Positions 3,891-61,076 of a DNA stretch of 64,000 nt are shown in pieces. Location of the stretch: assembly GCA_964588165.1 (NCBI GenBank), contig CAZPMS010000001.1, positions 164,722-228,721 of the forward strand, written 5' to 3'. A model generated the notes under the pieces. It was given only the letters and a program-made list of their open reading frames with translations. It had not been told where the DNA came from and did not search any database. The DNA comes from an uncultured Gammaproteobacteria bacterium. Its GTDB lineage: Bacteria > Patescibacteriota > Patescibacteriia > UBA1558 > UBA10009. The translations under genes and the position numbers were made by a program. Positions within the stretch are counted from its first letter, which is position 1. Each line of letters opens with the position of its first letter.

Positions 3891-5663
3891 TTATTTTTCA
3901 AACATAATACAACTATTATTATAAGAATTCATTATCTTTGCTCCAATATTATCAAAATCTTTAATATTTCTAACAGGATTTCTGACCCAAACACCATTTT
4001 CTCTATAATTTACCCATAATTTAAATACATTAAACTCAATCTCAAGAAAAGAATATTTAGTTTTATAAATAACCCTTTTCTTCGTAATTACTTCTTCAAC
4101 ATCTTTTATGCCTAATAAAAACCTTCTTATATTACCGAATAAATTATGAACTTCCATAATAACTCTTCTGTTAATTAATTCACCAAGCACATATTGGTCG
4201 CCGATTTTCCTCTTTAATAGTTTTCCTTTATTGATTAATCTTGAATTTACGTTAAAATTTATTTTTTCATACTTTAAATCAAAATTAAACTTAATATATC
4301 TAATTGACTCCGAATTTGAATCTAAACTTTGATTATTAAACTCATTTTTATTAATTGCAGGAATAGAACAGTATAACTTTAAATAATTTTTATAAACAAT
4401 AACTTTTTCAATAATTGACCTTATTATTTCCCTTTTTTGTTTAAAACTTAAACAGCTTAAAGAATTTTTATACTCAACTAATAATAATTTGTGAAAATTA
4501 TAACTTTTAAAATACAAATCCTTATCAATATAGCTATAAAGTGACTCTGGTCTAGTTAATAACTCTTTAACCTTATACCAAACAACATCATCAAGTATAC
4601 ATGTTCTAATTTGTATAGCTGGACATAATTTATCAGTTTTAAATTTTCTCTTATTAGTGCAAATATAATATTTAGTTCGATAAAAATGTTTTTTCTTAAA
4701 ATGGTTTTGTATTGATCTTGTATACGCGCGCCCACAAATGCCACATTTTAAAATTGAACGCAATAATGAATCACTAACTTTTTTAAAATTTTCTCTACTT
4801 TTAAATCTGCTATCTCTTATACTCTCTGCTCTAATAAAAACTTTTTTATCAATAATTTTGGGAACATTAATTTTTATCCAGTCTTCTTTCGGTCTTAAAA
4901 TTTTTCTAGCTCTAAATTTACTCCTGTCAGCATATTTCCTAAAATAAGTTTCACCAGTATACGCCTCATTTCTTAGTACGTGGTATATTGTATTCTGATC
5001 CCAAAATATTTTTTTATTTTTTTTCTTATGCGTACGCCTGTATGCATATTTTGTAGAAATTTTCATACCAATAATTGTTTTTTGTATTCTTCCTACGCCC
5101 ATACCTTTATTAATAAATAAATGATAAATTAGTTTTACTATCTCTGCTTCCTTTTTATTTATTATTAAATTTTTATTTTTTCTGTTGTAACCAAATGGGA
5201 CACTTCCGAACCAAGTACCTTTGTTCATAGATTTAATCATGCCGCCCACATTTCTTTCTTTGATAAGATTGCGTTCAAATTCAGCAAATGCTGATAATGT
5301 TGAAATAATTAATTTTCCAGTAGTTGTAGCTACTTCAAACGGCTCACTTACACTCCTTACTTCTATTCCTAAATTATTTAACTCGGCGATTAAATTTAAA
5401 AACATTATTTGATTCCGGGCTAATCTATCAATTCTATAAAAAACAAGGGCATCAAATTTTTTTTCTCTTGCTTCTTTTATTAATTGAGTTAATTGCGTTC
5501 TTTTTAATACATAGCCGCTCTCACCTTCCTCTCTAAATAATTTATAAAACTCCCAACCTTTTAATTCAATAAATTTTTTACAACTTTCAAACTGATTTTC
5601 TAAAGAAAATCCCTTAATTTGTTCGTCTGAGCTAACGCGGGTATATATTGCTGCTTTTTTCAT
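3891..5663 (-). CDS. Large serine recombinase (resolvase/invertase N-terminal catalytic domain plus recombinase domain and Cys-rich zinc ribbon)
   Basis: N-terminus MKKAAIYTRVSSDEQ carries the catalytic Ser motif of serine recombinases. 590 aa with Cys pairs (CGICG...C...C) typical of large serine recombinases/phage integrases. Confidence 0.85.
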   Translation of the reverse strand: MKKAAIYTRVSSDEQIKGFSLENQFESCKKFIELKGWEFYKLFREEGESGYVLKRTQLTQLIKEAREKKFDALVFYRIDRLARNQIMFLNLIAELNNLGIEVRSVSEPFEVATTTGKLIISTLSAFAEFERNLIKERNVGGMIKSMNKGTWFGSVPFGYNRKNKNLIINKKEAEIVKLIYHLFINKGMGVGRIQKTIIGMKISTKYAYRRTHKKKNKKIFWDQNTIYHVLRNEAYTGETYFRKYADRSKFRARKILRPKEDWIKINVPKIIDKKVFIRAESIRDSRFKSRENFKKVSDSLLRSILKCGICGRAYTRSIQNHFKKKHFYRTKYYICTNKRKFKTDKLCPAIQIRTCILDDVVWYKVKELLTRPESLYSYIDKDLYFKSYNFHKLLLVEYKNSLSCLSFKQKREIIRSIIEKVIVYKNYLKLYCSIPAINKNEFNNQSLDSNSESIRYIKFNFDLKYEKINFNVNSRLINKGKLLKRKIGDQYVLGELINRRVIMEVHNLFGNIRRFLLGIKDVEEVITKKRVIYKTKYSFLEIEFNVFKLWVNYRENGVWVRNPVRNIKDFDNIGAKIMNSYNNSCIMFEK

Positions 5664-8663: not shown

Positions 8664-8679
8664 ATGGCACTAATAACCC

Positions 8680-8790
8680 ACCGATCTATCACTGATGAAG
8701 CGCTGATTAATCACTGATATTAATATCGGTGAGCCATCTGTGATATATCCGTGATAGCTCAGCGTATATCCGTGATTTATCCGTGGTACT
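8680..8790. repeat. Interspersed palindromic repeat element, copy A (inverted relative to copies B and C)
   Basis: Reverse complement of 8680-8765 is near-identical to 13270-13352 (gagctatcac(a/g)gatata...ctcaccgatattaatatcagtgattaatcagcgcttcatcagtgatagatcggtgg). The internal palindromes caccgat/atcggtg, tgattaatca and atattaatat, and three ~10-bp tatccgtgat sub-repeats, are all seen directly in the sequence. Confidence 0.8.
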
Positions 8791-10646: not shown

Positions 10647-11087
10647 TTGGAGTTACAAATGATCAAGAAATTGATAGTCAGCCTTGGCTGCCTAATACTC
10701 GTTGGCCTGCTGGTAAGCCTTTTTTTCGGCTCACAAATAGAAGGAATGTATAAATTTGTAACTACTTGCTATAGCTACTTTGACGCCGAAATGCAAACCG
10801 TAATAAATGACATGGTAATCTTTGGCGCCTCAATAGCATTAATATTTGCGGCAGTAATGGCATTTATTGGTAAAATGATTAAAGGAATTATCCCTCTTGG
10901 CTACTTTTTGATTTCGACAGCCATGATATGTTTCTCTTCTGTGTTTTTAAAAGTACCCGGAGGTTCGCTGGTGATGGTCGTACTTTTGGCCTCCTTTGGT
11001 ATTTCCAGTGTTATTTCCTTCTTATTGTTCTACCTAATATTTAGAACAATACCCAAACATAAACACCAATTATTCTACCCCGCTTGA
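10647..11087 (+). CDS. Small integral membrane protein (4 predicted TM), paralog 1 of a tandem family
   Basis: 146 aa, four hydrophobic segments, C-terminal KHKHQ...P motif shared with paralogs 2 and 3; followed by a hairpin terminator. Confidence 0.5.
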   Translation: MELQMIKKLIVSLGCLILVGLLVSLFFGSQIEGMYKFVTTCYSYFDAEMQTVINDMVIFGASIALIFAAVMAFIGKMIKGIIPLGYFLISTAMICFSSVFLKVPGGSLVMVVLLASFGISSVISFLLFYLIFRTIPKHKHQLFYPA

Positions 11088-11195
11088 AACAAAACGGGGT
11101 TTTTTCTTTGTTAAATAATTGACAAAATAATCAATTATAAACTAATATACTATATAAGCATAGAACATTCACAAGATAGATAAGGAGAAGTAAAG

Positions 11196-11636
11196 ATGAG
11201 GAAACAATGGTTTAAATTCGCCTTCGTCCTTGGGATACTGGTTATAATCGGATACTTTGTGTTCTCTCCAGTCATGGAGTGGTACAATGGTTTCAGTCAA
11301 TACAAACAAACATCTGCAATTCTTATCTTAACCTCTGCGTGTATTTCTGGCTTGATCATGGGTATAATCGTCGGCCTGAACACTAAGCAAAGTGAATTCT
11401 TAAAACCTGATAAATTGATTGCTAAACTTTTTATCTGGGAAGTGTTCGGTCTTGCGATTAGCTTTATTATTATTACTGGTTTTCTTTTTTTTGTAGATCG
11501 GATTAGCGGAGCTATTGAAATAGATATTATTCACATTTCCAGCTTTTCCATTATCTACTTAACCACTTCCTCCCTGGTCTATTTGATTAAGGAAACAATG
11601 TCAAAACATCACCAACCAATACTTGACCCTGTCTGA
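11196..11636 (+). CDS. Small integral membrane protein, paralog 2
   Basis: 146 aa, same architecture, C-terminal SKHHQPILDPV. GGAGAAG RBS. Its upstream roughly 100-bp promoter/UTR is near-identical to that of paralog 3. Confidence 0.5.
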   Translation: MRKQWFKFAFVLGILVIIGYFVFSPVMEWYNGFSQYKQTSAILILTSACISGLIMGIIVGLNTKQSEFLKPDKLIAKLFIWEVFGLAISFIIITGFLFFVDRISGAIEIDIIHISSFSIIYLTTSSLVYLIKETMSKHHQPILDPV

Positions 11637-11771
11637 TCTTTTCTATCCACAAATCCCCCCGTTTGGAAATTCAAGCGGGGTTTTTTCTTTGTTAAATAAT
11701 TGACAATATAAATTTTTTATAGTTAACTATCAATATAGAACATTCACAAACGTAGTGAGAAGGAGAAAACC

Positions 11772-12191
11772 ATGTTGATCAAATGGATTATCTACTTAGC
11801 TAGCCTTTTTGCTTTATTCCTATTCAAAGATCCCATATCATCTTTTGTAATAGATTCGTATGGTGATCTTAATCAAGTAGAACAAAAATTCATAACTGAT
11901 GGTTTTATATTTTGTGCGATCATTGGCATATTTAGTGCTACACTCACCGGTTTAGCACTTATTAAACCTCTAATTGATGTAAAAAGATGCCTTTATGCTG
12001 GAATAATACTGGGCTTAATATTTGGCTTCAGCCTTGGCATGACTTTTATCTCGTCCAAACAAAGCTTTAATATTGGTTTAACCGCTGGTTCAATATATCT
12101 TATAAGCCATTTAATTATTTTCTTCTCTATTTATTTAATAAATGAAACGGTAAAACACTATCGCCATAAGGCCCAGCCATTCCTAGTCTGA
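11772..12191 (+). CDS. Small integral membrane protein, paralog 3
   Basis: 139 aa, C-terminal VKHYRHKAQPFLV; AGGAGAA RBS; own promoter and terminator. Confidence 0.5.
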   Translation: MLIKWIIYLASLFALFLFKDPISSFVIDSYGDLNQVEQKFITDGFIFCAIIGIFSATLTGLALIKPLIDVKRCLYAGIILGLIFGFSLGMTFISSKQSFNIGLTAGSIYLISHLIIFFSIYLINETVKHYRHKAQPFLV

Positions 12192-12285
12192 AAGCAGTTC
12201 TATCCACTTACAACACCCTAAGTTATACAAAACTTGGGGGTTTTTCTTTTTAAAAAAATTAAATAAGTGATATAATGAATTTTGT

Positions 12286-12681
12286 ATGAAACAATCTTTT
12301 TGGCAAAATTTGCCCATTTTAAGATTTTTAGCCGGCTTTTGGGGCTGGGTTACCATGCTCCTGTTTATTGTTGATTTTTTTAGCCACCATCTGCTTTCTG
12401 AAGGTATAACTACGGCAGCTGTAATTTATGGCGCTATTTTAGCTATGTACGCAGGCTCTAAAGAATACAAGCGTTGGCAACAAAAAAAGAACTATAAATC
12501 CGACCATTTTGGTGAACTATATATTATTACCTGGACCCTGGTAATGGTAATCTTTGTGGCTTTAACCTTTTTACTTAGCGGTTACTACAAAATCCCCGGT
12601 GAATTTCCAGCTGTTTATTTAACAGTTTTATCAGTTTTTATCCTTTCCAGGGAATCCAAATCATTTATTGCTAAAAGTTAA
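12286..12681 (+). CDS. Small integral membrane protein, a divergent fourth member of the array
   Basis: 131 aa, 3-4 TM segments, preceded by a hairpin plus T-run terminator of the previous unit. Confidence 0.4.
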   Translation: MKQSFWQNLPILRFLAGFWGWVTMLLFIVDFFSHHLLSEGITTAAVIYGAILAMYAGSKEYKRWQQKKNYKSDHFGELYIITWTLVMVIFVALTFLLSGYYKIPGEFPAVYLTVLSVFILSRESKSFIAKS

Positions 12682-12690
12682 TTATCAATA

Positions 12691-12765
12691 GCTCACCGAT
12701 ATTAATATCAGTGATTAATCAGCGCTTCATCAGTGATAGATCGGTGGTTTATCAGTGACTATAGT
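12691..12765. repeat. Interspersed palindromic repeat element, copy B (direct with copy C)
   Basis: gctcaccgatattaatatcagtgattaatcagcgcttcatcagtgatagatcggtggtttatcagt, identical over about 70 bp to 13290-13358. Confidence 0.8.
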
Positions 12766-12821: not shown

Positions 12822-13247
12822 ATGATGTCTAAAAACAAGCCTCTTTTTTTGTTGGAGGAAAAATTAACTTACAAATTAAGAGGGATTTTTATTGAAATTA
12901 GTAAACAACATGGTTGTTTATTTAAAGAAAAGGTCTATCAAAAAATAATTATTGATGAATTTCAAAATAAAAACGTTAAATTTGAATCCCAGCCAAGAAT
13001 TTCTATATATAACTTAATTACAGGTAAAGAAATTGGTTACTATTCCCCAGATTTTCTAGTAGAAAATAAAGTAATTGTCGAAATAAAAGCTCAGGGTCAA
13101 ATCTATAATAGTCATATTAATCAACTGATTAAATACTTAAATTCTACAAAATTTGAAATTGGACTAATAGTGAACTTCGGAACTCCAATGGTTCAAATTA
13201 TTAGAAAAATATTTACAAACGACAAAAAATCATTTATTCACAAATAA
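12822..13247 (+). CDS. GxxExxY-family / PD-(D/E)XK nuclease-like small protein
   Basis: HGCLFKEKVYQK (G..E..Y-like) motif plus PDFLVENKVIVEIKA (D...E.K) typical of the GxxExxY PD-(D/E)XK family. 141 aa. Flanked by direct repeat copies B and C. Confidence 0.5.
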   Translation: MMSKNKPLFLLEEKLTYKLRGIFIEISKQHGCLFKEKVYQKIIIDEFQNKNVKFESQPRISIYNLITGKEIGYYSPDFLVENKVIVEIKAQGQIYNSHINQLIKYLNSTKFEIGLIVNFGTPMVQIIRKIFTNDKKSFIHK

Positions 13248-13358
13248 ATCACAGATATTCACGGAGCTATCACAGATATACCACAGATGGCTCACCGATA
13301 TTAATATCAGTGATTAATCAGCGCTTCATCAGTGATAGATCGGTGGTTTATCAGTAGT
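13247..13358. repeat. Interspersed palindromic repeat element, copy C. It includes three atcacagata sub-repeats and lies just 5' of the rpmE promoter.
   Basis: Sequence identity to copy B and to the reverse complement of copy A. A TTGACA-17-TAGAAT promoter for rpmE follows at about 13355-13385. Confidence 0.8.
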
Positions 13359-13851: not shown

Positions 13852-14907
13852 ATGGATAAATTCAAACAAAAAATTGAAGAATTAAAAAGTAAATTTGATA
13901 CTTTAGAAAGAGACCTCCAAGACGGAGAGGTTGTTTCTGATCCTAAAAAATTGCAGAAAATTTCCAAAGAATATAACGAAATTAAAGAAATATTAAATTT
14001 AAATAATAAATTAGAAAAAATTGAATTAGAAACAGTGGATTTAAAAAATATTATTAAGGATGAAACGGAAAAAGAATTAACCCAAATGAGCGAAGAAGAA
14101 CTCAATAAACTTAATAAAGAAAAAGAAGCCCTGGAAAAAGAACTAACAGAAGCTTTAAATCCGGCTGATCCGATGGATAAAAAAGATATTATTATGGAAA
14201 TAAGAGCAGGCACCGGCGGCGATGAGTCTGCCTTGTTTGCCGCTGACCTTTTTAGAATGTATTCCAGATACGCTGAAGCTAAAGGTTGGAAAATAAAAAT
14301 TATTTCCCAAAACAGAATTTCTATCGGCGGCTTTAAAGAAATTATTTTTGAAATAACCGGCAAAAACGTTTATAAAGATTTAAAATACGAAAGTGGAGTC
14401 CACCGGGTCCAGCGGGTGCCGGAAACGGAAAAATCCGGCCGGATCCATACTTCGGCTGCCACTGTGGCCGTAATGCCGGAAGCGGAAGAAATAGATTTAA
14501 CCATTGATCCTAAAGATTTAAGGATAGATACTTTTTGTGCCTCCGGCCACGGCGGACAAAGCGTTAATACTACCTACTCAGCCATTAGAATTACCCATTT
14601 GCCAACTAATTTGGTTGTTTCCTGCCAAGACGAAAAATCACAGCTGCAAAATAAAGAAAAAGCCATGCAGGTTTTACGGTCCAGGTTACTGGCTTATGAA
14701 CAAGAAAAAAAAGCTAAAGAAGAGGCAGCCAACAGGAAAAGCCAAATAGGCACCGGTGATAGGTCAGAAAAAATCAGGACTTATAACTTCCCCCAAGATA
14801 GGATGACTGACCACCGCATAAAATTAACTCTGCATAATTTAGATAAAATTTTAAACGGTGATATTAATGAAATTATTGAAGCCATAAGAAAAGTAGATCT
14901 TGAATAA
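13852..14907 (+). CDS. prfA: Peptide chain release factor 1
   Basis: GGQ motif ([10 protein letters not shown]) and RF1-type PxT tripeptide (RVPETE); followed by prmC. Confidence 0.9.
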
Positions 14908-15035: not shown

Positions 15036-15815
15036 TTGAAATTAATATATATGACTATAAATACCGCCCTAAACTGGGCTTTAAAAAAAATTGAAAAAAA
15101 ATACCCTAACTCGGCCTCCCTTGACGCCGAGATTTTATTATCTTTTGTTTTTAAAAGACCAAAAGAATTCTTATATACCTATCCCGAAAAAAAATTAAAT
15201 TTTTTACAAAAGCTTAAACTAGCTAAACTGATTAAAAAAAGGTTGGATAACTTCCCTATTGCTTATTTGACCCATCAAAAAGAATTTTACGATTATAATT
15301 TTTTTGTTAATAAACATGTTTTAGTGCCCAGACCTTTAACCGAACAAATGGTTGATTTAGCCCTCCGAGAGATAAAAAAACGTCACTCGTCACTCGTCAC
15401 TCGTCACACGATTTGCGACGTAGGCACAGGCAGCGGCAATATCATCATCAGCTTAGCTAAAGAACTTCAAAAAAAATATAGCATTGACGATTTTAAACTT
15501 TACGGACTGGATATTTCCGGTAAAGCTTTAAAAGTTGCCAAAAAAAATGCCAAACTTAATAAGGTTGATAAACATATTACTTTTTTAAAAAGTGACCTGC
15601 TTAATACGGTAGTTGATAAACAAATTGACTTAATTTTAGCTAATCTCCCCTATCTTGAGGCTGACGACCTCAAGGAACAATCAATTACCAAGGAACCTAA
15701 ACTGGCCTTAGTTGGAGATTACCAAAAACTTTTTAAACAAATTGATTCTCTAAAAAATAAGCCGATAGTTATTTACGAAGATAAAAACGGCATAAATTTA
15801 AAATCTCTTAAATAA
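15036..15815 (+). CDS. prmC: Release-factor glutamine N5-methyltransferase PrmC/HemK
   Basis: DVGTGSGNI SAM motif and NLPY (NPPY-type) motif; immediately downstream of prfA. The start may be the internal Met at 15051. Contains a (cgtcact)x4 heptamer repeat at 15381-15408. Confidence 0.8.
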   Translation: MKLIYMTINTALNWALKKIEKKYPNSASLDAEILLSFVFKRPKEFLYTYPEKKLNFLQKLKLAKLIKKRLDNFPIAYLTHQKEFYDYNFFVNKHVLVPRPLTEQMVDLALREIKKRHSSLVTRHTICDVGTGSGNIIISLAKELQKKYSIDDFKLYGLDISGKALKVAKKNAKLNKVDKHITFLKSDLLNTVVDKQIDLILANLPYLEADDLKEQSITKEPKLALVGDYQKLFKQIDSLKNKPIVIYEDKNGINLKSLK

Positions 15816-27234: not shown

Positions 27235-29043
27235 ATGAAAAATAATACACAAATAGAAAATCAAGCTCAGCTAGAAAAAGTCAGGCACTCCATATCTCAT
27301 TTAATGAGCATGGCGATAATTGAACTTTATCCTAAAACCGGCCTTGGCGTCGGACCTTTTATTGAAAATGGTTTTTATCAAGACTATGATTTGTCTGAAC
27401 CAATTTCTGAAGAAATCCTGCCCAAGCTGGAAAAAAGAATCAAAGAGTTAATTAAACAAGATATTAAATTTGAACAGCATGCCATGGATTTTAAAGAAGC
27501 CTTAAAAGAATATAAACATGATCCGTATAAAACTGAGATGATTGAAAATTTAAAAAAAGACGGAGAAAAAAACGTAAGTTTTTATAAATCCGATTGGTTT
27601 GAAAATTTATGCAAAGGCCCCCACGTAAAATCTACCAAAGAAATTGACCCCAGGGCTTTTAAACTTACCTCCATTGCAGGAGCTTATTGGCGTGGTGATG
27701 AAAAAAATAAAATGCTTACCCGAATTTACGGTGTTGCCTTTGAATCAAAAAATAAACTTAATGACTATTTAAAAATGGTAGAAGAAGCCAAAAAACGCGA
27801 CCACCGGAAAATCGGCAAAGATCTGGATTTATTCACTTTTTCCGAAACTGTAGGTAAAGGCTTGCCACTCTGGACCGAAAAAGGCGCCGTTATAAAACGC
27901 GAACTGGAAAATTTTATAATAAACGAAGAATTAAAACGCGGCTATAAACATGTAGTAACTCCAGATATGGCCAGGGTGGCTCTTTATAAAAAATCAGGCC
28001 ACTATCCTTACTATAAAGATTCCATGTATCCGCCAATTAAACTGGATGAAGAAGAATTCATGCTAAGGCCCATGGCTTGTCCTCACCATTTTGAGCTTTA
28101 TTTAAGCAAACCCCGCAGTTACCGCGATCTGCCACTTAGAATCGCCGAGTTGGCTAAGCTATACCGTTACGAAAAATCTGGTGAACTGACCGGCCTAATG
28201 AGAGTAAGAAATTTCTGTTTGGCTGATTCGCATATAATTTGCGCAGATAGCAAACAGGCCAAAGACGAAATAAATAATGTTTTAAATTTAATAGAATATG
28301 TGGCCGGAGTTTTTGGACTAAAATCAGGCAAAGATTATTCTTACAGATTTTCTTTAGGTGATAGAAAAAATGATAAAAAATATTACAAAGATAATAAAGC
28401 TTGGGATAGCGCCGAAAAAAACCTTAAAGCTGTTTTAGATAAAAGAAAAAGTAAATATGTAATAGCTCCAGATGAAGCGGCCTTTTACGGCCCTAAGGTT
28501 GATATCCAGATGAAAAACGTCATGGGCAAGGAAGACACCGCCTTTACTGTACAGTACGATTTTGTAATGCCAAAAAGATTCAACCTAACCTATACCAATA
28601 AAAAGGGAGATAATCAGGAGGCTATTGTTATCCACCGCTCTTCTATTGGCGCCATAGAAAGAAGCGTAGCCTTTTTAATTGAACATTTTGCCGGCAACTT
28701 CCCGTTATGGCTCTGCCCTATCCAAGTTAAAATAATTTCGGTTGGCTCGGACCATAAAAAGTTCTGCCAGAAATTAGCTAATAAATTAATAGCAGAAGGC
28801 TTGCGCGTAGAAACTGACTTGATAAATGAAACTGTTGGTAAAAAAATCAGAAATGCTTCTAAAGAAAAAATTCCTTACACCTTGGTAATTGGTGATAAAG
28901 AACTAAAATCCCTGCCTGCTGGCAGGCAAGGTGATAAGTTGGCTGTAAGAGTTAGGGGCGAAGAAAAACTATTGGAAATTGATTATGCTAAATTCGTTAA
29001 GAAGCTAAAGAAACTGATATCTGAAAAATCTCTTGGATTATGA
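27235..29043 (+). CDS. thrS: Threonyl-tRNA synthetase
   Basis: Class II aaRS motifs (FRNFCLADSH, HRSSIGAIER), anticodon-binding C-terminus; 602 aa, so a short form lacking part of the N-terminal extension. Confidence 0.95.
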   Translation: MKNNTQIENQAQLEKVRHSISHLMSMAIIELYPKTGLGVGPFIENGFYQDYDLSEPISEEILPKLEKRIKELIKQDIKFEQHAMDFKEALKEYKHDPYKTEMIENLKKDGEKNVSFYKSDWFENLCKGPHVKSTKEIDPRAFKLTSIAGAYWRGDEKNKMLTRIYGVAFESKNKLNDYLKMVEEAKKRDHRKIGKDLDLFTFSETVGKGLPLWTEKGAVIKRELENFIINEELKRGYKHVVTPDMARVALYKKSGHYPYYKDSMYPPIKLDEEEFMLRPMACPHHFELYLSKPRSYRDLPLRIAELAKLYRYEKSGELTGLMRVRNFCLADSHIICADSKQAKDEINNVLNLIEYVAGVFGLKSGKDYSYRFSLGDRKNDKKYYKDNKAWDSAEKNLKAVLDKRKSKYVIAPDEAAFYGPKVDIQMKNVMGKEDTAFTVQYDFVMPKRFNLTYTNKKGDNQEAIVIHRSSIGAIERSVAFLIEHFAGNFPLWLCPIQVKIISVGSDHKKFCQKLANKLIAEGLRVETDLINETVGKKIRNASKEKIPYTLVIGDKELKSLPAGRQGDKLAVRVRGEEKLLEIDYAKFVKKLKKLISEKSLGL

Positions 29044-29375
29044 CCAAACAACTTAAATATTATATCTGGGCGCTGGGTTGCGCCATGAATAAAGCAGATG
29101 GCGAACGTATCGCCACTGTTTTAGATTCTGCAGATTACATTCAGGTTGATTCTGAAAACAAAGCTGATTTTATTATGGTAGTAGCTTGCTCTGTTAGGCA
29201 ATCAGGAATTGATAGAATCTTGGGTAAATTTAATGTATGGAAAAAGAAAGGCATTAAAACAATAATAACCGGTTGCGTTTTAGATTTAGATAGGCCTAAA
29301 ATGGAAAAACTATTTGATTTGGTTTTTGATATTAAAGATTTAGAAAAACTACCAAATTTGATTAAAAATTTATAA
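29040..29375 (+). CDS. miaB: MiaB-like methylthiotransferase, N-terminal MTTase domain fragment (split gene or pseudogene)
   Basis: YYIWALGCAMNKADGE matches the MTTase N-domain (ETLGCQMN-type). Ends at a TAA that is in frame with the following radical-SAM ORF. Confidence 0.6.
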   Translation: MTKQLKYYIWALGCAMNKADGERIATVLDSADYIQVDSENKADFIMVVACSVRQSGIDRILGKFNVWKKKGIKTIITGCVLDLDRPKMEKLFDLVFDIKDLEKLPNLIKNL

Positions 29376-29429
29376 TATCTGCGAAATATCCGCGGGTCAT
29401 CCGCGGGTCATCCGCGGGTCATCCGCGAT

Positions 29430-30341
29430 ATGAATAAAATAGAATACCTAGAAATAAATCCAAAACACTCTTCAAAATATAAAGCCAACGTGCCAATTTC
29501 TTTTGGGTGTAATAATTTTTGCACTTACTGCGCCGTGCCTTATACCCGCGGTAAAGAAATCTCCAGGCCTTCAGCAAAAATTATTGAAGAATGCAAAAAA
29601 TTAATAAATGACGGTTATAAAGAAATTACTTTGCTGGGCCAAAATGTAAATAGCTATGGTTTAGATTTAGATGACGAGATCAAATTTCCTGAATTATTAA
29701 AAGGAGTTGATGAAATTGAAGGTGATTTTTGGATCCGCTATACCTCTCCCCACCCTAAAGATATGAGTGATAAATTAATACAAATCATGGCCAAAGGCAA
29801 GCATATCTGCAAACAATTGAATCTGCCAATGCAGTCTGGCGATGATGAAATTTTAAAACGCATGAACCGGACTTACACTAGTCAGCATTATTTAGATCTG
29901 GTTGCTAAAATCAAACAAGCCATGCCAAATATTTTTCTATCTACCGATATTATTGTAGGTTTTCCCGGTGAAACTAAAAAACAGTTTAATAATACAGCCA
30001 AACTGTTTAAACAAGTCGGTTTTAGCATGGCCTATGTTGCCCAGTTCTCTCCCCGTCCGGGAACCCCAGCCGCCAAAATGCCGGATAATGTAACTAAAGC
30101 AGAAAAAAAACGCCGTGAAGAAAAACTGAATAAAATTTTAAAAAAATCAGCTTTAAAAATTAACAAAAAATTATTAAATAAAAAAATTTTAGTTTTAGTT
30201 GATGGGCGCGGTATTGGACGAAACGAATTTTTAACCAAAGTTACCTTTAAAGGTTCCCATGATTTAATCGGTCAGTTTTTAAAGATAAAAATAACCAAAG
30301 CTAAAAGCTTTGGTTTAGAAGGATCGATCGCTGAAAACTGA
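29430..30341 (+). CDS. miaB: MiaB-like methylthiotransferase, radical SAM plus TRAM domains
   Basis: CNNFCTYCAVPYTRG (CxxxCxxC radical SAM), C-terminal TRAM-like region; same frame as 29040..29375. Confidence 0.7.
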   Translation: MNKIEYLEINPKHSSKYKANVPISFGCNNFCTYCAVPYTRGKEISRPSAKIIEECKKLINDGYKEITLLGQNVNSYGLDLDDEIKFPELLKGVDEIEGDFWIRYTSPHPKDMSDKLIQIMAKGKHICKQLNLPMQSGDDEILKRMNRTYTSQHYLDLVAKIKQAMPNIFLSTDIIVGFPGETKKQFNNTAKLFKQVGFSMAYVAQFSPRPGTPAAKMPDNVTKAEKKRREEKLNKILKKSALKINKKLLNKKILVLVDGRGIGRNEFLTKVTFKGSHDLIGQFLKIKITKAKSFGLEGSIAEN

Positions 30342-30342
30342 T

Positions 30343-30786
30343 CTATTTATCAACTCCCAGTAAATCGAAAAGTTGTTCTCGGGTAAAAGGCTTGGGCAGG
30401 GTACCGCCTATACCATCTTCGATTCTTTCTTTTACAACGCGTAGGCCATCTGCCTTGTCAATAAACTTGCCGCTCATCATGAAAATATTTTCTTTGTCCA
30501 TTCCGGCTTTCAACGCTGCTAAGACAACATCAAAGCCTTCGTTCCGTTCCGGAATATGCCTATCTGTTAGTAATAAGTCCGGTAATGTATCATTAATTTC
30601 TTGGATAGCATAATGAGCAGAGGTGATAAAAACCATCTCCAATGGCTCTCCATTGATGGTTTTATTTTCAATAAATCGACCTATTAAATCTCTGAAATAG
30701 GGCTTGTCGTCAACTACAAGAAGTCTGATCATGATCTTCTCCTTGAAAGGAATAACTGCTTGGTTTTTTTGTATGTACGGTTTCAA
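30343..30786 (-). CDS. Stand-alone response-regulator receiver (CheY-like) protein
   Basis: IRLLVVDDKPYFRDL...LLLTD...K receiver signature. The start is possibly the internal Met at 30733. Confidence 0.6.
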   Translation of the reverse strand: MKPYIQKNQAVIPFKEKIMIRLLVVDDKPYFRDLIGRFIENKTINGEPLEMVFITSAHYAIQEINDTLPDLLLTDRHIPERNEGFDVVLAALKAGMDKENIFMMSGKFIDKADGLRVVKERIEDGIGGTLPKPFTREQLFDLLGVDK

Positions 30787-30872
30787 ATAACCTTATCATA
30801 TAGTAAAATTTGAGTCAATATTTTGGTAAAAAGAAAAAGCTGACCCGATGTGTCTTGGGTCAGCTTGAAATG

Positions 30873-31274
30873 TTAAGCTGCTTGTTTTGCCAATGCTTGA
30901 ACGGCTTTGGCAATTTCAATCGTTTGATGAGGCTTGACAAAGACATTGCCTTTGCCCGCGAGTCGCTCAATATCGGCAATTTTACCTTCGCCCGTGAAAA
31001 CAAAAATCGTTTTCACTTTTTTCTGAGCTGCCTTTACTACGGCTGCCCCACCTTCATTAAAACCTTCAGGGAATCTTTCAGCATCAATATCTACTACCGG
31101 CATATGCCAATCAGTAACAACAACATCCCATCCGCCTTGAGACAACTTATCAATGGCTTCTGGGGCTGCCAGGCCACCATAGCAATAATCAACCCGGTGG
31201 CCTAAATATTCCAGCATCTTAACTAAAGGTTTAGAATGATTATGATGGTCATCAGCTACCAATATTTTCATCAT
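30873..31274 (-). CDS. Stand-alone response-regulator receiver (CheY-like) protein, GC-richer
   Basis: MMKILVADDH...VVVTDWHMP...K receiver motifs; 133 aa. The + strand ORF 30810..31205 is its antisense artefact. Confidence 0.6.
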   Translation of the reverse strand: MMKILVADDHHNHSKPLVKMLEYLGHRVDYCYGGLAAPEAIDKLSQGGWDVVVTDWHMPVVDIDAERFPEGFNEGGAAVVKAAQKKVKTIFVFTGEGKIADIERLAGKGNVFVKPHQTIEIAKAVQALAKQAA

Positions 31275-31598: not shown

Positions 31599-32483
31599 AT
31601 GAACCATAAACAATTACCAAAATTAATAGTTGTCCTAGGGCCTACTTCTGCTGGTAAAACCGGCTTAGCTGTAAAACTGGCTAAGCAGTTTAATGGTGAA
31701 ATTGTTTCGGCCGATAGCAGGCAGGTCTATATTGGCATGGATATTGGCACTGGTAAAGATCTCAATGAATATGGCAATATCCCCCATCATTTAATTGATG
31801 TGGTAAAGCCAAAATTTCAATTTAGTTTGGCTAAATTCCAAAAACTGGCTTACAAAGCTATTGATGACGTTATTAAACGAGGCAGAACTCCTTTTTTGGT
31901 TGGCGGCAGTGGACTTTATTTGCAATCAATCATTGATGGTTACCAGTTGGCCAAAATAAAACCTAAAAAGCACTTGAGATTGTTTTTAAATTTTTTAAAT
32001 ACCAGCCAACTTCAACGGCTGGCTAAAAAACAAGGTCTTAAATTAAATGAATCTGACTTTAATAATAAACGCAGGTTAATCAGACAAATTGAAATTTCTC
32101 AGAAAAAAAATAAATTTAAACCATCCGATTTGCCAAAATATGACTGTTTACAAATTGGATTAGCCCTTACTAAAGATGAGCTGGATAAACGAATTGATGC
32201 CAGGCTAAAACATCGTTTAGAAAAAGAGGGTTTAATTGAGGAAGTTAAAAAACTCCAACAAGACGGCGTTAGTTGGAAAAGGTTGAATGATTTTGGTTTA
32301 GAATATAGGTTTGTTTCAAAATATTTGCAAAACGAGCTTTCTTATGAGGAAATGTTTGAAAAATTAAGAACAGCTATTCATCAATTTGCCAAAAGGCAGA
32401 TGACTTGGTTTAAAAGAGATAACCGGATTAATTGGATAAATAACTATCTTGAGGCTGAAAAAATAACTAAAAATTTTATATAA
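31599..32483 (+). CDS. miaA: tRNA dimethylallyltransferase
   Basis: LIVVLGPTSAGKTGLA P-loop and ADSRQVYIGMDIGTGK motifs. Confidence 0.9.
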   Translation: MNHKQLPKLIVVLGPTSAGKTGLAVKLAKQFNGEIVSADSRQVYIGMDIGTGKDLNEYGNIPHHLIDVVKPKFQFSLAKFQKLAYKAIDDVIKRGRTPFLVGGSGLYLQSIIDGYQLAKIKPKKHLRLFLNFLNTSQLQRLAKKQGLKLNESDFNNKRRLIRQIEISQKKNKFKPSDLPKYDCLQIGLALTKDELDKRIDARLKHRLEKEGLIEEVKKLQQDGVSWKRLNDFGLEYRFVSKYLQNELSYEEMFEKLRTAIHQFAKRQMTWFKRDNRINWINNYLEAEKITKNFI

Positions 32484-45012: not shown

Positions 45013-45092
45013 GCTTTTTTACTTTCTAGGATGCGAGAAGGTTAGTATGCCAGTTTCCTGACATTCTGACATTCTGACATTCTTAATTTTAT

Positions 45093-58076: not shown

Positions 58077-61076
58077 CTAAATTATATCTTTACAAAAGAA
58101 ACAATCAGGCTTATGATTTTTTAATTCTTTTTCCCAATCACAATTTTTAATTTCCTCAATTGTTTTAACTATAAACTCTTCTGTTTCTTTAATATCTTCC
58201 TTGGAGGCCACAAAAGACATATCAATATTATCAATTTCATTCTCTAAATAATAATAAGATAACTCTTTAATTTTACCATCGAGGAATGTATTTGCAGCCA
58301 TTTGATATAAAATTAGCTGTCTTTTATCCTCCAGCCTTAATTTATCTTTAGGTTTGCCGGTTTTATAATCTATTATTTTATAACCATCTTTAAATTCATC
58401 AATTCTATCTATCTTACCTGTTACCATATATTTTTGAATTTTTATTCCAAATCCTTTTTCTAAATAAGCTGGTAAGGACCGGTCTATAAAATCGCTTTCA
58501 TAAAATCTTTTTAGAATATCTTTACCTTTTTTAAAATAACTATTCTTATCACTAACTGATTCATACCAATCGTCTATCCAGACCTCTTGATAAATGTTAA
58601 GCAAATAATCAAGACTTACTAAATCTCTAATGGTTTTTGATTTCTTACCTTTTCGGTCTGTCCCGAGCGAAGCCGAGGGACCCCTTAGTTTTGAATCCGT
58701 CTGGTCAAAAAGACCAACTTGACTAGAGCCTTGTCTGCGTTTAACTTCTTCATAAAATTTCTGCAGCGCTAGATGAATTGTTGAACCAAAACTAAAGCGA
58801 AAATTACCTTTTGAAGGAACCTTTAATATTGTGTTATAAAAATAAGCTCGTTTACATAGTTTAAAACTGGACAGTTGCGAAAATGAAAATCTAGTCGGTA
58901 ATGGATATTTATAGGTTGTAGGTTGTAGATTGTAGGTTGTAGGTTTAATTTTTTCAATTGACTCAAGTTTCTCATTTTTAGAAGATTTTTGTTTTGATTG
59001 ACTGAATCTTAAATCATCTAGGAAAACTGAAATTTTCTTGTTCCTTACACCGCCATAATCTTCGGCTGAAGTAAAATACAGGCCTTCCTTGGCACGCGTC
59101 ATGCCTACATAAAACAACCGCCTTTCTTCTTGTAAATGAATATTGCCTTCCGGGATAATTTCCTTAACCAAACTATCTGGCAATAAAATTGGATCTTTCC
59201 TTTCTGAAGTTGGGAAGCGCCTATCTACCATATTCACTAAAAAAACATGTTTAAATTCCAAACCTTTAGCTCCATGAACTGTCATCACTTTTACCATTTC
59301 TGGACTCTCATCTTCTGTTAACGGCTGGATATCACCTTGTTCGCCCGATTCTATTTCTAAACCTAACTGCTTTAAAAAGTTTTTTACTGATTTATCGTCG
59401 TTTAATTCTTCAAAAACCTTTATTCGCCTATAAAATTGGCCCAGGTATGAAAATTGCTGCCTTTTATTAAATTCATCTAAAGAATCAACATATTTTAGAT
59501 AACCTGACTCATTTAAAAAATCAAAAATAATTCTGCTGGTTTTGGCATTCTTGGCCTGGCTAATAAATTTTTCTAATAAACGGACTGACTTATCTAACTC
59601 AGCCTGGCTCACATCTGATAATCTGATCAATGCCCGGGCCTGCCTGGCCACTTCGTACAAATTCCATCTTTTTTTATAAGCTTGATGGGTAATTTTTATT
59701 ATTTCTTCCTGCTCCATTTTAAAAATCGGCATAGTTAAATACCTATACATGGCATCTGATTCATGGAAATCATCAAGTAACTTTAAAAAGGCTACCAAAT
59801 TTAAAATGACCGGTTTTGCATAAAGGCCTTTAGAGGCCACGAATTGATAAGGAATTCCGGCCCGTTCCAAACCTTCAATAAACGGCTTAGCCTGGTTATT
59901 GGCCCTTACCAATATTGCGAAATTTGACCAATTATTTTTTAGTGGATCTTTTTTGTAAAGTGAGCCGATTTTATTTATTACTTTTGCCACCTCTTCGTCA
60001 GCAGTAGGCAAATGCAAATGTTCAATGGTGCCTTTAGATTTTGAAGGTGACTTTAATTCCTTGGAAAGTTTTTTATTGCCTATTTTAAGCTGGGCTTCCA
60101 AACGGTTAGGATTATTGAGCTGAATGAATTTATAGGCTAAATCTAAAATATTCTGCTTGGTTCGGTAATTGATACTTAAATAAACTTCTGCAGATTTTGG
60201 AAAATCTTTTTTAAATTCTAAAATGTTTGAAATTGATGCTCCGCGGAATTTATAGATTGACTGATCATCATCCCCTACCACAGTGATGTTGTTTTGAGGC
60301 AGGGCTAAAAGTTTAATTAATTGATACTGGGCATAATTAGTATCCTGAAATTCATCAACCAAAACATATTTAAATTGATTTTGGTATTGTTTTAAAATCT
60401 TAGGCCGTTTTTGGAAAAGTTCATAACAATAATTTATTAAATCACCAAAATCCAAATAATCATTATCCAATAGCAGTTGCTGATACACATGATAAGCATT
60501 GGCTACTTCTTCTAATCTTTTAACTTCAAGAGCTGCGTCTTCATCTTTCCTTAAATCATTATCCAAACGATATGATTCGGCATATTTAAGATAATCTTTT
60601 GGTTCTACCATTTCGTCTTTGGCTTTGGAAAAATGTTTTAGCAAGGCATGAATAAATTTATTAGGATTGCCAAGGGGCTTATAATAATCCAGATCAAACT
60701 TATTTAAATTATTCCTAACCAACAACCAGGCTGCTGTTTGGTCTAAAACTTTAAATTCCGTGGTTAAACCGACTTCCAAACCGTGCTTTTTTAAAATCCG
60801 TTCAGCAAAAGCATGGAAAGTGGAAATCCATAAATCCACATAACCCATTGGTAAAGCCCTATCCACCCGCTCCTCCATTTCTGCGGCCGCCTTTTCCGTA
60901 AAAGTTAAAGCCAATACTTCTTCCGGCTGGATTTTTTGCTTGGTAATAAGCCAGTTTATCCTTTCGGTAATAACGGTGGTTTTACCGGTACCGGCGCCGG
61001 CCACAATTAAAAGCGGCCCCTTTGCATGTTGAACCGCCTTTTTCTGCTCTGGATTTAACTTGTCTGCATAACTCAT
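58077..61076 (-). CDS. UvrD/PcrA-family superfamily-1 helicase fused to a C-terminal PD-(D/E)XK (RecB/AddA-like) nuclease domain with a 4-Cys cluster
   Basis: Walker A AGAGTGKTT at the N-terminus and UvrD motifs. The C-terminal region has ...DYKTGKPKDK and CDWEKELKNHKPDCFFCKD Cys residues. 999 aa. Contains an (aggttgt)x5 heptamer repeat at 58913-58946. Confidence 0.8.
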   Translation of the reverse strand: MSYADKLNPEQKKAVQHAKGPLLIVAGAGTGKTTVITERINWLITKQKIQPEEVLALTFTEKAAAEMEERVDRALPMGYVDLWISTFHAFAERILKKHGLEVGLTTEFKVLDQTAAWLLVRNNLNKFDLDYYKPLGNPNKFIHALLKHFSKAKDEMVEPKDYLKYAESYRLDNDLRKDEDAALEVKRLEEVANAYHVYQQLLLDNDYLDFGDLINYCYELFQKRPKILKQYQNQFKYVLVDEFQDTNYAQYQLIKLLALPQNNITVVGDDDQSIYKFRGASISNILEFKKDFPKSAEVYLSINYRTKQNILDLAYKFIQLNNPNRLEAQLKIGNKKLSKELKSPSKSKGTIEHLHLPTADEEVAKVINKIGSLYKKDPLKNNWSNFAILVRANNQAKPFIEGLERAGIPYQFVASKGLYAKPVILNLVAFLKLLDDFHESDAMYRYLTMPIFKMEQEEIIKITHQAYKKRWNLYEVARQARALIRLSDVSQAELDKSVRLLEKFISQAKNAKTSRIIFDFLNESGYLKYVDSLDEFNKRQQFSYLGQFYRRIKVFEELNDDKSVKNFLKQLGLEIESGEQGDIQPLTEDESPEMVKVMTVHGAKGLEFKHVFLVNMVDRRFPTSERKDPILLPDSLVKEIIPEGNIHLQEERRLFYVGMTRAKEGLYFTSAEDYGGVRNKKISVFLDDLRFSQSKQKSSKNEKLESIEKIKPTTYNLQPTTYKYPLPTRFSFSQLSSFKLCKRAYFYNTILKVPSKGNFRFSFGSTIHLALQKFYEEVKRRQGSSQVGLFDQTDSKLRGPSASLGTDRKGKKSKTIRDLVSLDYLLNIYQEVWIDDWYESVSDKNSYFKKGKDILKRFYESDFIDRSLPAYLEKGFGIKIQKYMVTGKIDRIDEFKDGYKIIDYKTGKPKDKLRLEDKRQLILYQMAANTFLDGKIKELSYYYLENEIDNIDMSFVASKEDIKETEEFIVKTIEEIKNCDWEKELKNHKPDCFFCKDII

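Follow-up and report, generated by a model that had tools for sequence, protein, structure and literature searches.

We analysed a window of 64,000 nucleotides from an uncultured bacterium that GTDB places in the Patescibacteriota (GenBank assembly GCA_964588165.1, contig CAZPMS010000001.1, positions 164,722 to 228,721). In this window, miaB, a gene of the methylthiotransferase (MTTase) family, lies in two pieces on the plus strand. The first open reading frame (ORF; 29040..29375, 111 aa) runs from ATG to TAA. It consists of a stand-alone MTTase N-terminal domain (Pfam PF00919, UPF0004, E 2.6e-16). The second ORF (29430..30341, 303 aa) has its own ATG and carries the Radical_SAM (PF04055, 7.4e-29) and TRAM (PF01938, 8.2e-06; 26.0 bits against a cut-off of 21) domains. 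We call them the N-half and the C-half. Both share one frame (29430-29040 = 390 = 130x3). The sole in-frame stop between them is the TAA at 29373..29375, which by direct reading is followed by a T. The spacer (29376-29429) measures 54 nt, and its in-frame translation is YLRNIRGSSAGHPRVIRD. The peptides expected from two separate polypeptides are N-terminal MNKIEYLEINPK and C-terminal ...LPNLIKNL. Tandem Repeats Finder located (ATCCGCGGGTC)x3.6 in the spacer, at 29388-29427, with 100% matches and a score of 80. A first-pass annotation of this DNA had reported the same ORF coordinates, common frame, single TAA, spacer length and GC-rich repeat, and all of these agree with our reading.

The halves belong to a thrS-miaBN-miaBC run. 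Its first gene is thrS (threonyl-tRNA synthetase; 27235..29043, plus strand; Pfam tRNA_SAD, tRNA-synt_2b and HGTP_anticodon), whose stop overlaps the start of the N-half as ATGA. The order thrS-miaB recurs in four of the related loci described below (L012, L017, L098 and L100). Downstream lies miaA (tRNA isopentenyltransferase; 31599..32483, plus strand; Pfam IPPT 1.5e-57), which is also a neighbour of miaB in L012 and L013. The product of miaA makes i6A37, the substrate of MiaB.

The two ORFs divide one MiaB-like profile between them. On TIGR00089 (MiaB/RimO), the first covers positions 1-110 and the second 131-429. On TIGR01574 (MiaB), the C-half scores 348.5 bits over positions 137-436 and the N-half 55.8 bits. 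Neither ORF alone attains the equivalog cut-off of 355.3, and neither qualifies as a MiaB in one polypeptide. The best NCBIfam equivalog of the C-half is nevertheless MiaB (348.5 bits), against 260.5 for MtaB and 211.2 for RimO. With this profile and with miaA nearby, the specificity is probably that of MiaB rather than of MtaB or RimO. Intein halves were not found: the N-half is filled by profile positions 1-110, the C-half has just 9 residues before position 131, and Pfam adds no domain.

The catalytic motifs of both halves are intact, as the first-pass annotation had stated and as Pfam, NCBIfam and motif reading confirm. In the N-half, LGCAMN, VACSVR and TGCVL hold the three cysteine ligands of the auxiliary [4Fe-4S] cluster. 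In the C-half, the radical-SAM motif CxxxCxxC is present as CNNFCTYC. In the alignment with fused homologues, residues C50, C79, C138, C142 and C145 do not vary.

The N-half aligns to residues 19-101 of the solved MiaB 7MJZ and the C-half to residues 164-453. A single-chain model of the concatenated halves, aligned with fused homologues, reached a pLDDT of 90.6 and a pTM of 0.89. This model superposes on solved MiaB structures with TM values of 0.90-0.92 (0.92 for 7MJW), and the alignment extends into TRAM, up to residue 453 of 7MJZ. It is compatible with the MiaB fold, which is not a proof of assembly in trans. The C-half alone corresponds to a solved fragment of Thermotoga maritima RimO (2QGQ, 304 residues), which it matches almost exactly (query 19-300 against chain 6-295). 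Since this counterpart was solved alone, that part can fold without the N-domain. Unlike the C-half, 2QGQ is an engineered truncation of a fused RimO-subfamily protein and not a natural two-gene arrangement. Canonical MiaB (TIGR01574; Bacteroides uniformis MiaB, 7MJV-7MJZ) agrees with the two halves taken together in its three domains and their order, in the six cluster cysteines and in TRAM. It differs in being one polypeptide of ~420-450 aa, where two ORFs (111 + 303 aa) are found here.

The gene could be continuous in the cell if the TAA or the repeat copy number were wrong in the assembly. Tandem repeats are error-prone, several short contigs stop ~100 nt past the N-half, and some sister contigs have indels in thrS. 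We consider this artefact a negligible prospect. Exact-sequence look-ups of both ORFs returned contigs (ENA SCRA20-1 and SUTE22-1 series, JGI 3300009106) from independent samples, assemblies and pipelines, and 130 nt over the junction were identical in all 11 that were fetched. With this agreement among contigs of several projects, the TAA and the repeat are not an assembly error. The relatives, moreover, are independently split. As for the thrS indels, they split this gene, which we take to be essential, into two ORFs in three otherwise near-identical strain variants of 27235-29043 (L003, L006 and L007). They are either assembly errors or strain-level frameshifts.

A reassignment of TAA was also considered. 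Among 64 long ORFs of the window, 46 end in TAA, 9 in TGA and 9 in TAG. The gene for release factor 1 (RF1, prfA) is present at 13852-14907. On the stop-codon usage and the RF1 gene, we rejected the reassignment.

The relatives of the locus bear on the age of the split. A search with the C-half gave three nearest homologues at 77, 63 and 62% identity. They measure 312-314 aa and are without UPF0004. C-half homologues at 61% identity or less were all fused, of about 400-460 aa, and annotated as Patescibacteria MiaB. The N-half search matched just six proteins, all of 98-120 aa. In 6 of the 6 relatives found (62-83% identity), miaB is in two pieces.

The junctions of these relatives differ. The closest by its N-half (L098/L099, 83% identity) reads AAATTATGAATAAA, with a stop/start overlap ATGA of 4 nt, no spacer and the C-half in frame -1. 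In L017 (C-half 77% identity), a TAG is followed by 27 nt and an ATG, in frame, and the spacer holds degenerate TTCGYG units at 11-bp spacing. In L012 and L102-L105 (C-half 63% identity), the junction is ATGTTAAAAAATAA. It is a 14-nt overlap with the C-half in frame +1, and it is base-identical in four datasets. In L013-L016 (C-half 62% identity), a 121-aa GIY-YIG gene (PF01541, 1.6e-15) and GC-rich hairpins stand between the halves. Both halves are visible in L013 alone, and L014-L016 have the same upstream flank. In L100 (N-half 68% identity), the start of an L013-type GIY-YIG gene follows the N-half, and the contig ends before any C-half. L101 ends in sequencing adapter and is uninformative at the junction.

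The split C-halves form one clade, with a neighbour-joining bootstrap of 99/100 in a tree that also holds the 45 fused homologues nearest to them. The split lineages have in common a 5-residue deletion and a GCAMNKADGE motif in the N-half. The C-half starts with Met (ATG) in every lineage, at a place where fused homologues carry other residues. The economical reading would be a single fission in the common ancestor of the split clade. The comparison indicates that the split is ancient and conserved in one small Patescibacteria clade, because all six relatives found are two-ORF and monophyletic. The first-pass annotation had attributed the split to the UAA and the inserted repeat. The split is older than both, as seen in the six two-ORF relatives, in L098 without a spacer and in the GIY-YIG gene between the halves of L013. 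A whole gene in that position means that the second half must initiate independently. Orthologues that are uniformly two-gene, with a conserved ribosome-binding site before the second half, had been named as an outcome that would speak against a recent or recoded split. The uniform two-gene state was found. The ribosome-binding site is not conserved; the conserved features are an ATG and a stop/start overlap.

Two wider scans added no members to this clade. A scan of genome contigs with the C-half was swamped by generic CNNFCTYC-bearing MiaB of Firmicutes and others, with no close relative, and a scan of metagenome contigs with the N-half gave no relatives. A representative search with the N-half returned many short UPF0004-only proteins, which are indistinguishable from ORFs cut by contig ends. 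We claim no independent splits from them.

The spacer has a later origin than the split. It holds an array with an 11-bp period (29377..29427, plus strand; Tandem Repeats Finder and pattern enrichment), built from five ATCNGYG units: one degenerate (ATCTGCGAAAT), three perfect (ATCCGCGGGTC) and a 7-nt partial fifth (ATCCGCG). The G+C content of the repeat unit is 8/11, against 0.26-0.40 in the window. In L098, the halves abut like a normal fused linker, and by alignment with fused homologues the window spacer makes ~18 surplus codons. Compared with L098, the window has 58 extra nt between GATTAAAAA and ATGAATAAAATAGA, which turn a -1 overlap into an in-frame gap. Because the array is absent from L098 and surplus to the linkers of fused homologues, it is, on this comparison, a secondary insertion into a pre-existing junction. 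The frame of the halves varies with the lineage: the window and L017 have 0, L098 has -1 and L012 has +1. The in-frame state observed here is thus a one-in-three coincidence.

At the RNA level, the array is predicted to form a hairpin (29386..29431, plus strand) with a minimum free energy of -28.7 kcal/mol and a z of -3.2. Only 1 of 200 shuffles was as stable. The hairpin starts 10 nt past the stop, and within it the A and U of the C-half AUG are paired. It may lower or gate the translation of the second half. We do not claim that its melting by the terminating ribosome is a coupling device; a start 10 nt past the stop coincides with the edge of the ribosome footprint. An Rfam scan of 28000-31000 gave no relevant family, and a promoter scan gave no plus-strand sigma-70-like site in the spacer. 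The idea of an inserted promoter was rejected, as the TATAAT at 29371-29376 has no acceptable -35 element.

The first-pass annotation had noted no obvious Shine-Dalgarno motif before the C-half. Such motifs precede 11 of the 64 window genes, and 53 lack them. Since they are rare in the window, their absence here carries no weight. In L098 and L012, the overlap of stop and start codons is the usual sign of translational coupling. An array of the same kind also ends 4 nt before the ATG of pyrH, presumably an essential gene, so such arrays are compatible with expression.

The first-pass annotation had listed a very recent pseudogenisation among its options. A nonsense mutation, the repeat or both would have just inactivated miaB, and the motifs would be intact for lack of time to decay. 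The three identical 11-mers point to a young array, part of the start codon is buried in the hairpin, and there is no within-population polymorphism that would show continuing selection. The sampled population is near clonal (0-1 single-nucleotide polymorphisms among contigs) and too uniform to reveal selection after the insertion. The stop, on the other hand, is not new. The N-half ends at the same place in all relatives (62-83% identity), with saturated synonymous sites. By the Nei-Gojobori method, both halves compared with the relatives gave a proportion of non-synonymous differences (pN) of 0.09-0.27 and of synonymous differences (pS) of 0.54-0.90, the latter saturated. Where dS was estimable, the N-half had a ratio of non-synonymous to synonymous substitution rates (dN/dS) of 0.06-0.26 and the C-half one of 0.06-0.19; the N-half of the window itself gave 0.06-0.17 against the relatives. 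Both halves have diverged to a similar extent (N against C identity, 83 vs 80% with L098 and 62 vs 63% with L012), and all cluster cysteines are conserved in the six split lineages. These values indicate that both halves are under strong purifying selection. The array beside the pyrH start and the intact miaA nearby also argue against inactivation. We find the pseudogenisation very unlikely, given the old stop position and the low dN/dS in both halves.

Programmed recoding had been suggested too. Readthrough of the UAA, or a bypass of the 54 nt, would give one fused MiaB, with the GC-rich hairpin as stimulator. Bypassing is known from T4 gene 60 and from the mitochondrial 'byps' elements. The common frame of the halves, the lack of a further stop in the spacer, the stable hairpin from 10 nt past the stop and the in-frame stop of L017 would all fit. 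But the relatives have other frames (-1 in L098, +1 in L012) or a whole gene between the halves, and a fusion cannot be the conserved mode. All lineages keep the ATG of the C-half. TAA is the main stop of the window (46/64) and the RF1 gene is present. The base after the UAA is a U, and in E. coli this combination terminates strongly. A bypass would take off from UUA, and 29376-29440 contains no TTA, TTG or any TT and hence no landing codon. Read in frame, the spacer would also make the linker 18 residues longer than in fused homologues, and no Rfam element matches. With frames that differ among relatives and no landing codon, recoding is an extremely improbable account of this junction.

The GIY-YIG gene of the relatives suggests another origin of the split. 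A free-standing homing-endonuclease gene could have broken miaB at the linker and then have been lost from most lineages, with the array as its footprint. This origin is compatible with an ancient fission. A precedent exists in the Aeromonas phage Aeh1, where the homing endonuclease gene mobE broke nrdA and left ribonucleotide reductase genes-in-pieces (PMC3045599). As in Aeh1, an enzyme gene lies in two adjacent ORFs with products that would have to come together again, and in some lineages of the clade (L013 and L100) a free-standing GIY-YIG gene is exactly between the pieces, entire with GC-rich hairpins in L013 and seen by its start in L100. In five lineages, arrays of the family found in the spacer flank GxxExxY nuclease genes. 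The window differs from Aeh1, as its gap is a 54-nt array and no endonuclease gene was found between the halves. Added interaction domains are also missing here: the N-half stops at profile position 110, and the C-half leaves just 9 residues unaligned. In L012 and L101, of the same subclade as L013 and L100, the N-half has a common tail (MLKKI...) without a nuclease gene, and in L013 and L100 the insert replaces this tail. The GIY-YIG insertion therefore looks younger than the split. Where the junction is simple, as in the ATGA and A-run overlaps, it also looks like a plain linker frameshift. We regard a homing origin as unlikely, although less so than inactivation or recoding.

The insert of these lineages has some features of its own. 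In L013 (141-670) and L100 (2290-2388), the GIY-YIG (YhbQ-like) gene has flanking GC-rich hairpins, such as TCCCGCGAAAGCGGGA. The hairpin sequence is translated as a new C-terminal tail of the N-half.

The best-supported history, and in our judgement the highly probable one, is a fission of miaB in the ancestor of the clade, with both pieces kept, an array added later and a two-piece enzyme as the outcome. The break would have fallen at the linker between the N-terminal MTTase and the radical-SAM domains, in the ancestor of a small Patescibacteria clade, and both pieces would have been retained since. A single transcript probably runs from thrS through both ORFs, each of which would be translated into a polypeptide of its own: one of 111 aa with the auxiliary [4Fe-4S] cluster, and one of 303 aa with the radical-SAM cluster and, for RNA binding, the TRAM domain. 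Most likely they assemble non-covalently into MiaB and convert i6A37 (from miaA) into ms2i6A37. In relatives, the second ORF would be coupled to the first through the overlapping stop/start. Later, a one-armed ATCNGYG array of 54-58 nt would have been inserted exactly at the junction. By chance it would have left a common frame, and its stable hairpin would abut the start of the C-half. The product is thus most likely a two-subunit MiaB, and the genuine two-piece enzyme, one of the options of the first-pass annotation, is the one favoured by the conserved two-ORF clade.

Several points weigh against this history. The association of the two polypeptides and their activity are what we infer from sequence. 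The hairpin (-28.7 kcal/mol) pairs two AUG bases and could depress C-half translation in this lineage, and the identity of the three 11-mers suggests that the spacer has not had its present form for long. This lineage may also have lost the function very recently; the population sampled is near clonal (0-1 polymorphisms). Our view covers 64 kb of the genome, and a second, fused MTTase elsewhere is possible. Finally, the L012-type junction would be fused by removing one A from its A6 run. Alone it would resemble a frameshift, yet it is identical in four datasets.

The array at the junction is not isolated in the window. The pattern ATCNGYG-N4-ATCNGYG (one mismatch at most) occurs 25 times, against 0.14 expected. 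The matches fall in four loci (8668-8785, 12707-12757, 13239-13356 and 29377-29427), plus one isolated 1-mismatch match at 4188. A full palindromic copy lies between tsf and pyrH (8668..8785, minus strand; flanks EF_TS and AA_kinase in Pfam), folds at -40.1 kcal/mol (z -3.8) and is the copy that ends 4 nt before the pyrH start codon. Another (13239..13356, plus strand; -30.3 kcal/mol, z -2.8) is downstream of a GxxExxY gene and upstream of rpmE-prfA, whose products were identified as L31 and RF1. Upstream of the GxxExxY gene there is a half-copy, a right arm (12688..12756, plus strand), 99% identical to 13287-13355. The two full copies present two arms of 11-mers that diverge from a ATATTAATAT centre. 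In all copies, the ATCNGYG strand points toward the downstream gene. All copies lie between ORFs, the folds have z values of -2.8 to -3.8, and the family is dispersed, intergenic and hairpin-forming in the manner of REP/BIME elements.

By manual alignment, the miaB spacer begins with TAATATCTGCGA, like the centre-right part TAATATCAGTGA of the palindromic copies, and is ~63% identical to a right arm. It would be best described as a one-armed copy with its middle units made identical.

REP/BIME palindromic repeats and REPtrons are short dispersed hairpin elements with a RAYT Y1 transposase partner. The elements of the window are likewise short, dispersed and hairpin-forming, and they lie between co-oriented operon genes (tsf-pyrH, upstream of rpmE, and the miaB junction). 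As in REPtrons, copies of the element stand on both sides of a small gene, here one of a nuclease family. They differ in that the units are direct ATCNGYG repeats of 11-bp period in one or two arms, and the partner is a PD-(D/E)XK GxxExxY gene and not a RAYT.

Similar arrays were seen elsewhere. On low-GC metagenome contigs (L223, L232 and L117/L167), there are very long 11-bp-period arrays of ATCTGTG or of ATCAGTG/ATCGGTG, some of them interspersed with spacers of ~45-50 nt. The ATCNGYG-type motif class appears to be widespread beyond this lineage. In L100, the stretch between thrS and the miaB N-half (1840-1965) carries CACGAA, CACGAAT and CACGGA units and then seven ATTCGTG units. It has a 10-11-bp period, folds at -38 kcal/mol (z -3.0) and is another sequence flavour of the same kind of array element. 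The window has other short tandem repeats as well: CGTCACT x3.9 at 15381-15407, CTGACATT x3.2 at 45058-45083 and TAGGTTG x4.9 at 58912-58945.

The GxxExxY gene (12822..13247, plus strand) encodes a small protein of a nuclease family (PD-(D/E)XK, PDDEXK_3; PF13366 1.4e-27, TIGR04256 1.6e-27). It is the only GxxExxY gene in the window and is bracketed by a 69-nt direct repeat (12688-12756 and 13287-13355; 99% identical). The family is listed with unknown function (PMC3424549). Homologues are flanked by arrays in four further lineages: L106 (71%), L107 (63%), L108-L113 (58%) and L234 (36%). With the window, this makes 5 of 5 lineages with arrays of ATCNGYG or ATCNGCG. The flanking duplication of L108-L113 measures 55 nt, and the period in L234 is ~10 bp. 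Among the array units at these homologues are ATCTGTGGGTC and ATCCGCGGG, which resemble the unit at miaB. The pattern was absent from 80 unrelated control loci (516 kb in total).

The association of GxxExxY genes and arrays holds in the direction from gene to array only, and arrays are commoner than genes. In the reverse test, the four-unit pattern was present in at least 120 metagenome stretches, none of them with a GxxExxY ORF. Many or most of these stretches are high-GC and heterogeneous, and the high-GC ones are probably unrelated tandem repeats. More distant phage PDDEXK_3 genes (L235-L243) had no arrays, and no pair of occupied and empty sites was seen for array and GxxExxY gene. The GxxExxY genes may target the arrays or carry them as ends. 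In two of the five lineages, direct duplications of 55-69 nt on both sides of the gene suggest a cassette that targets or carries arrays.

A broader proposal may be put forward tentatively. The repeat may have arisen otherwise than by random slippage, as a single stray member of a class of hairpin-forming arrays not described before, which would serve as ends or landing sites for small selfish GxxExxY cassettes in Patescibacteria. The miaB junction would then be a tolerated landing pad of two nuclease systems, with the array here and in L017, and GIY-YIG in L013 and L100. Should the hairpin also gate the second half, the subunit ratio of a split radical-SAM enzyme would have come under the control of a mobile repeat. 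We think this possible, although rather doubtful. The 11-bp arrays that abut start codons and bracket GxxExxY genes may merit a study of their own.

Two other features of the window are recorded here. Within thrS (28905-28931), there is an in-frame 21-nt GC-rich hairpin, CCTGCCTGCTGGCAGG, translated as LPAGRQG, which thrS of L017 and L012 lacks. Other reduced genomes have similar palindromic mini-insertions within their genes. Pfam matched none of four ORFs of ~131-146 aa that lie in tandem at 10647-12681. A 39-nt repeat (AAACGGGGTTTTTTCTTTGTTAAATAATTGACAA...) follows each of the first three and looks like a terminator plus promoter.

Split housekeeping genes are known from Nanoarchaeum equitans, where many halves are unlinked. 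The miaB case is alike in the fission of a conserved information-processing enzyme at a domain boundary, in an ultra-small, host-dependent organism. It differs in that the pieces are adjacent and in order. To our knowledge, MiaB, RimO and MtaB have always been described as single three-domain polypeptides. Our literature search (split MiaB, GxxExxY, PDDEXK_3, Patescibacteria gene fission) found no prior description of a split MiaB or of these ATCNGYG arrays, which is absence of evidence only.

For annotation, the locus is a warning. An in-frame stop between the domains of a Patescibacteria gene can represent an old fission, and not a pseudogene or recoding; a look at relatives settles this quickly. 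In the current mechanism of MTTases, the auxiliary cluster of the N-domain passes sulfur to a radical made in the neighbouring domain. If a split MiaB is indeed kept under selection across the clade, this would show that the auxiliary-cluster domain can be supplied in trans, and it would offer a ready-made system for the study of domain docking and cluster repair.

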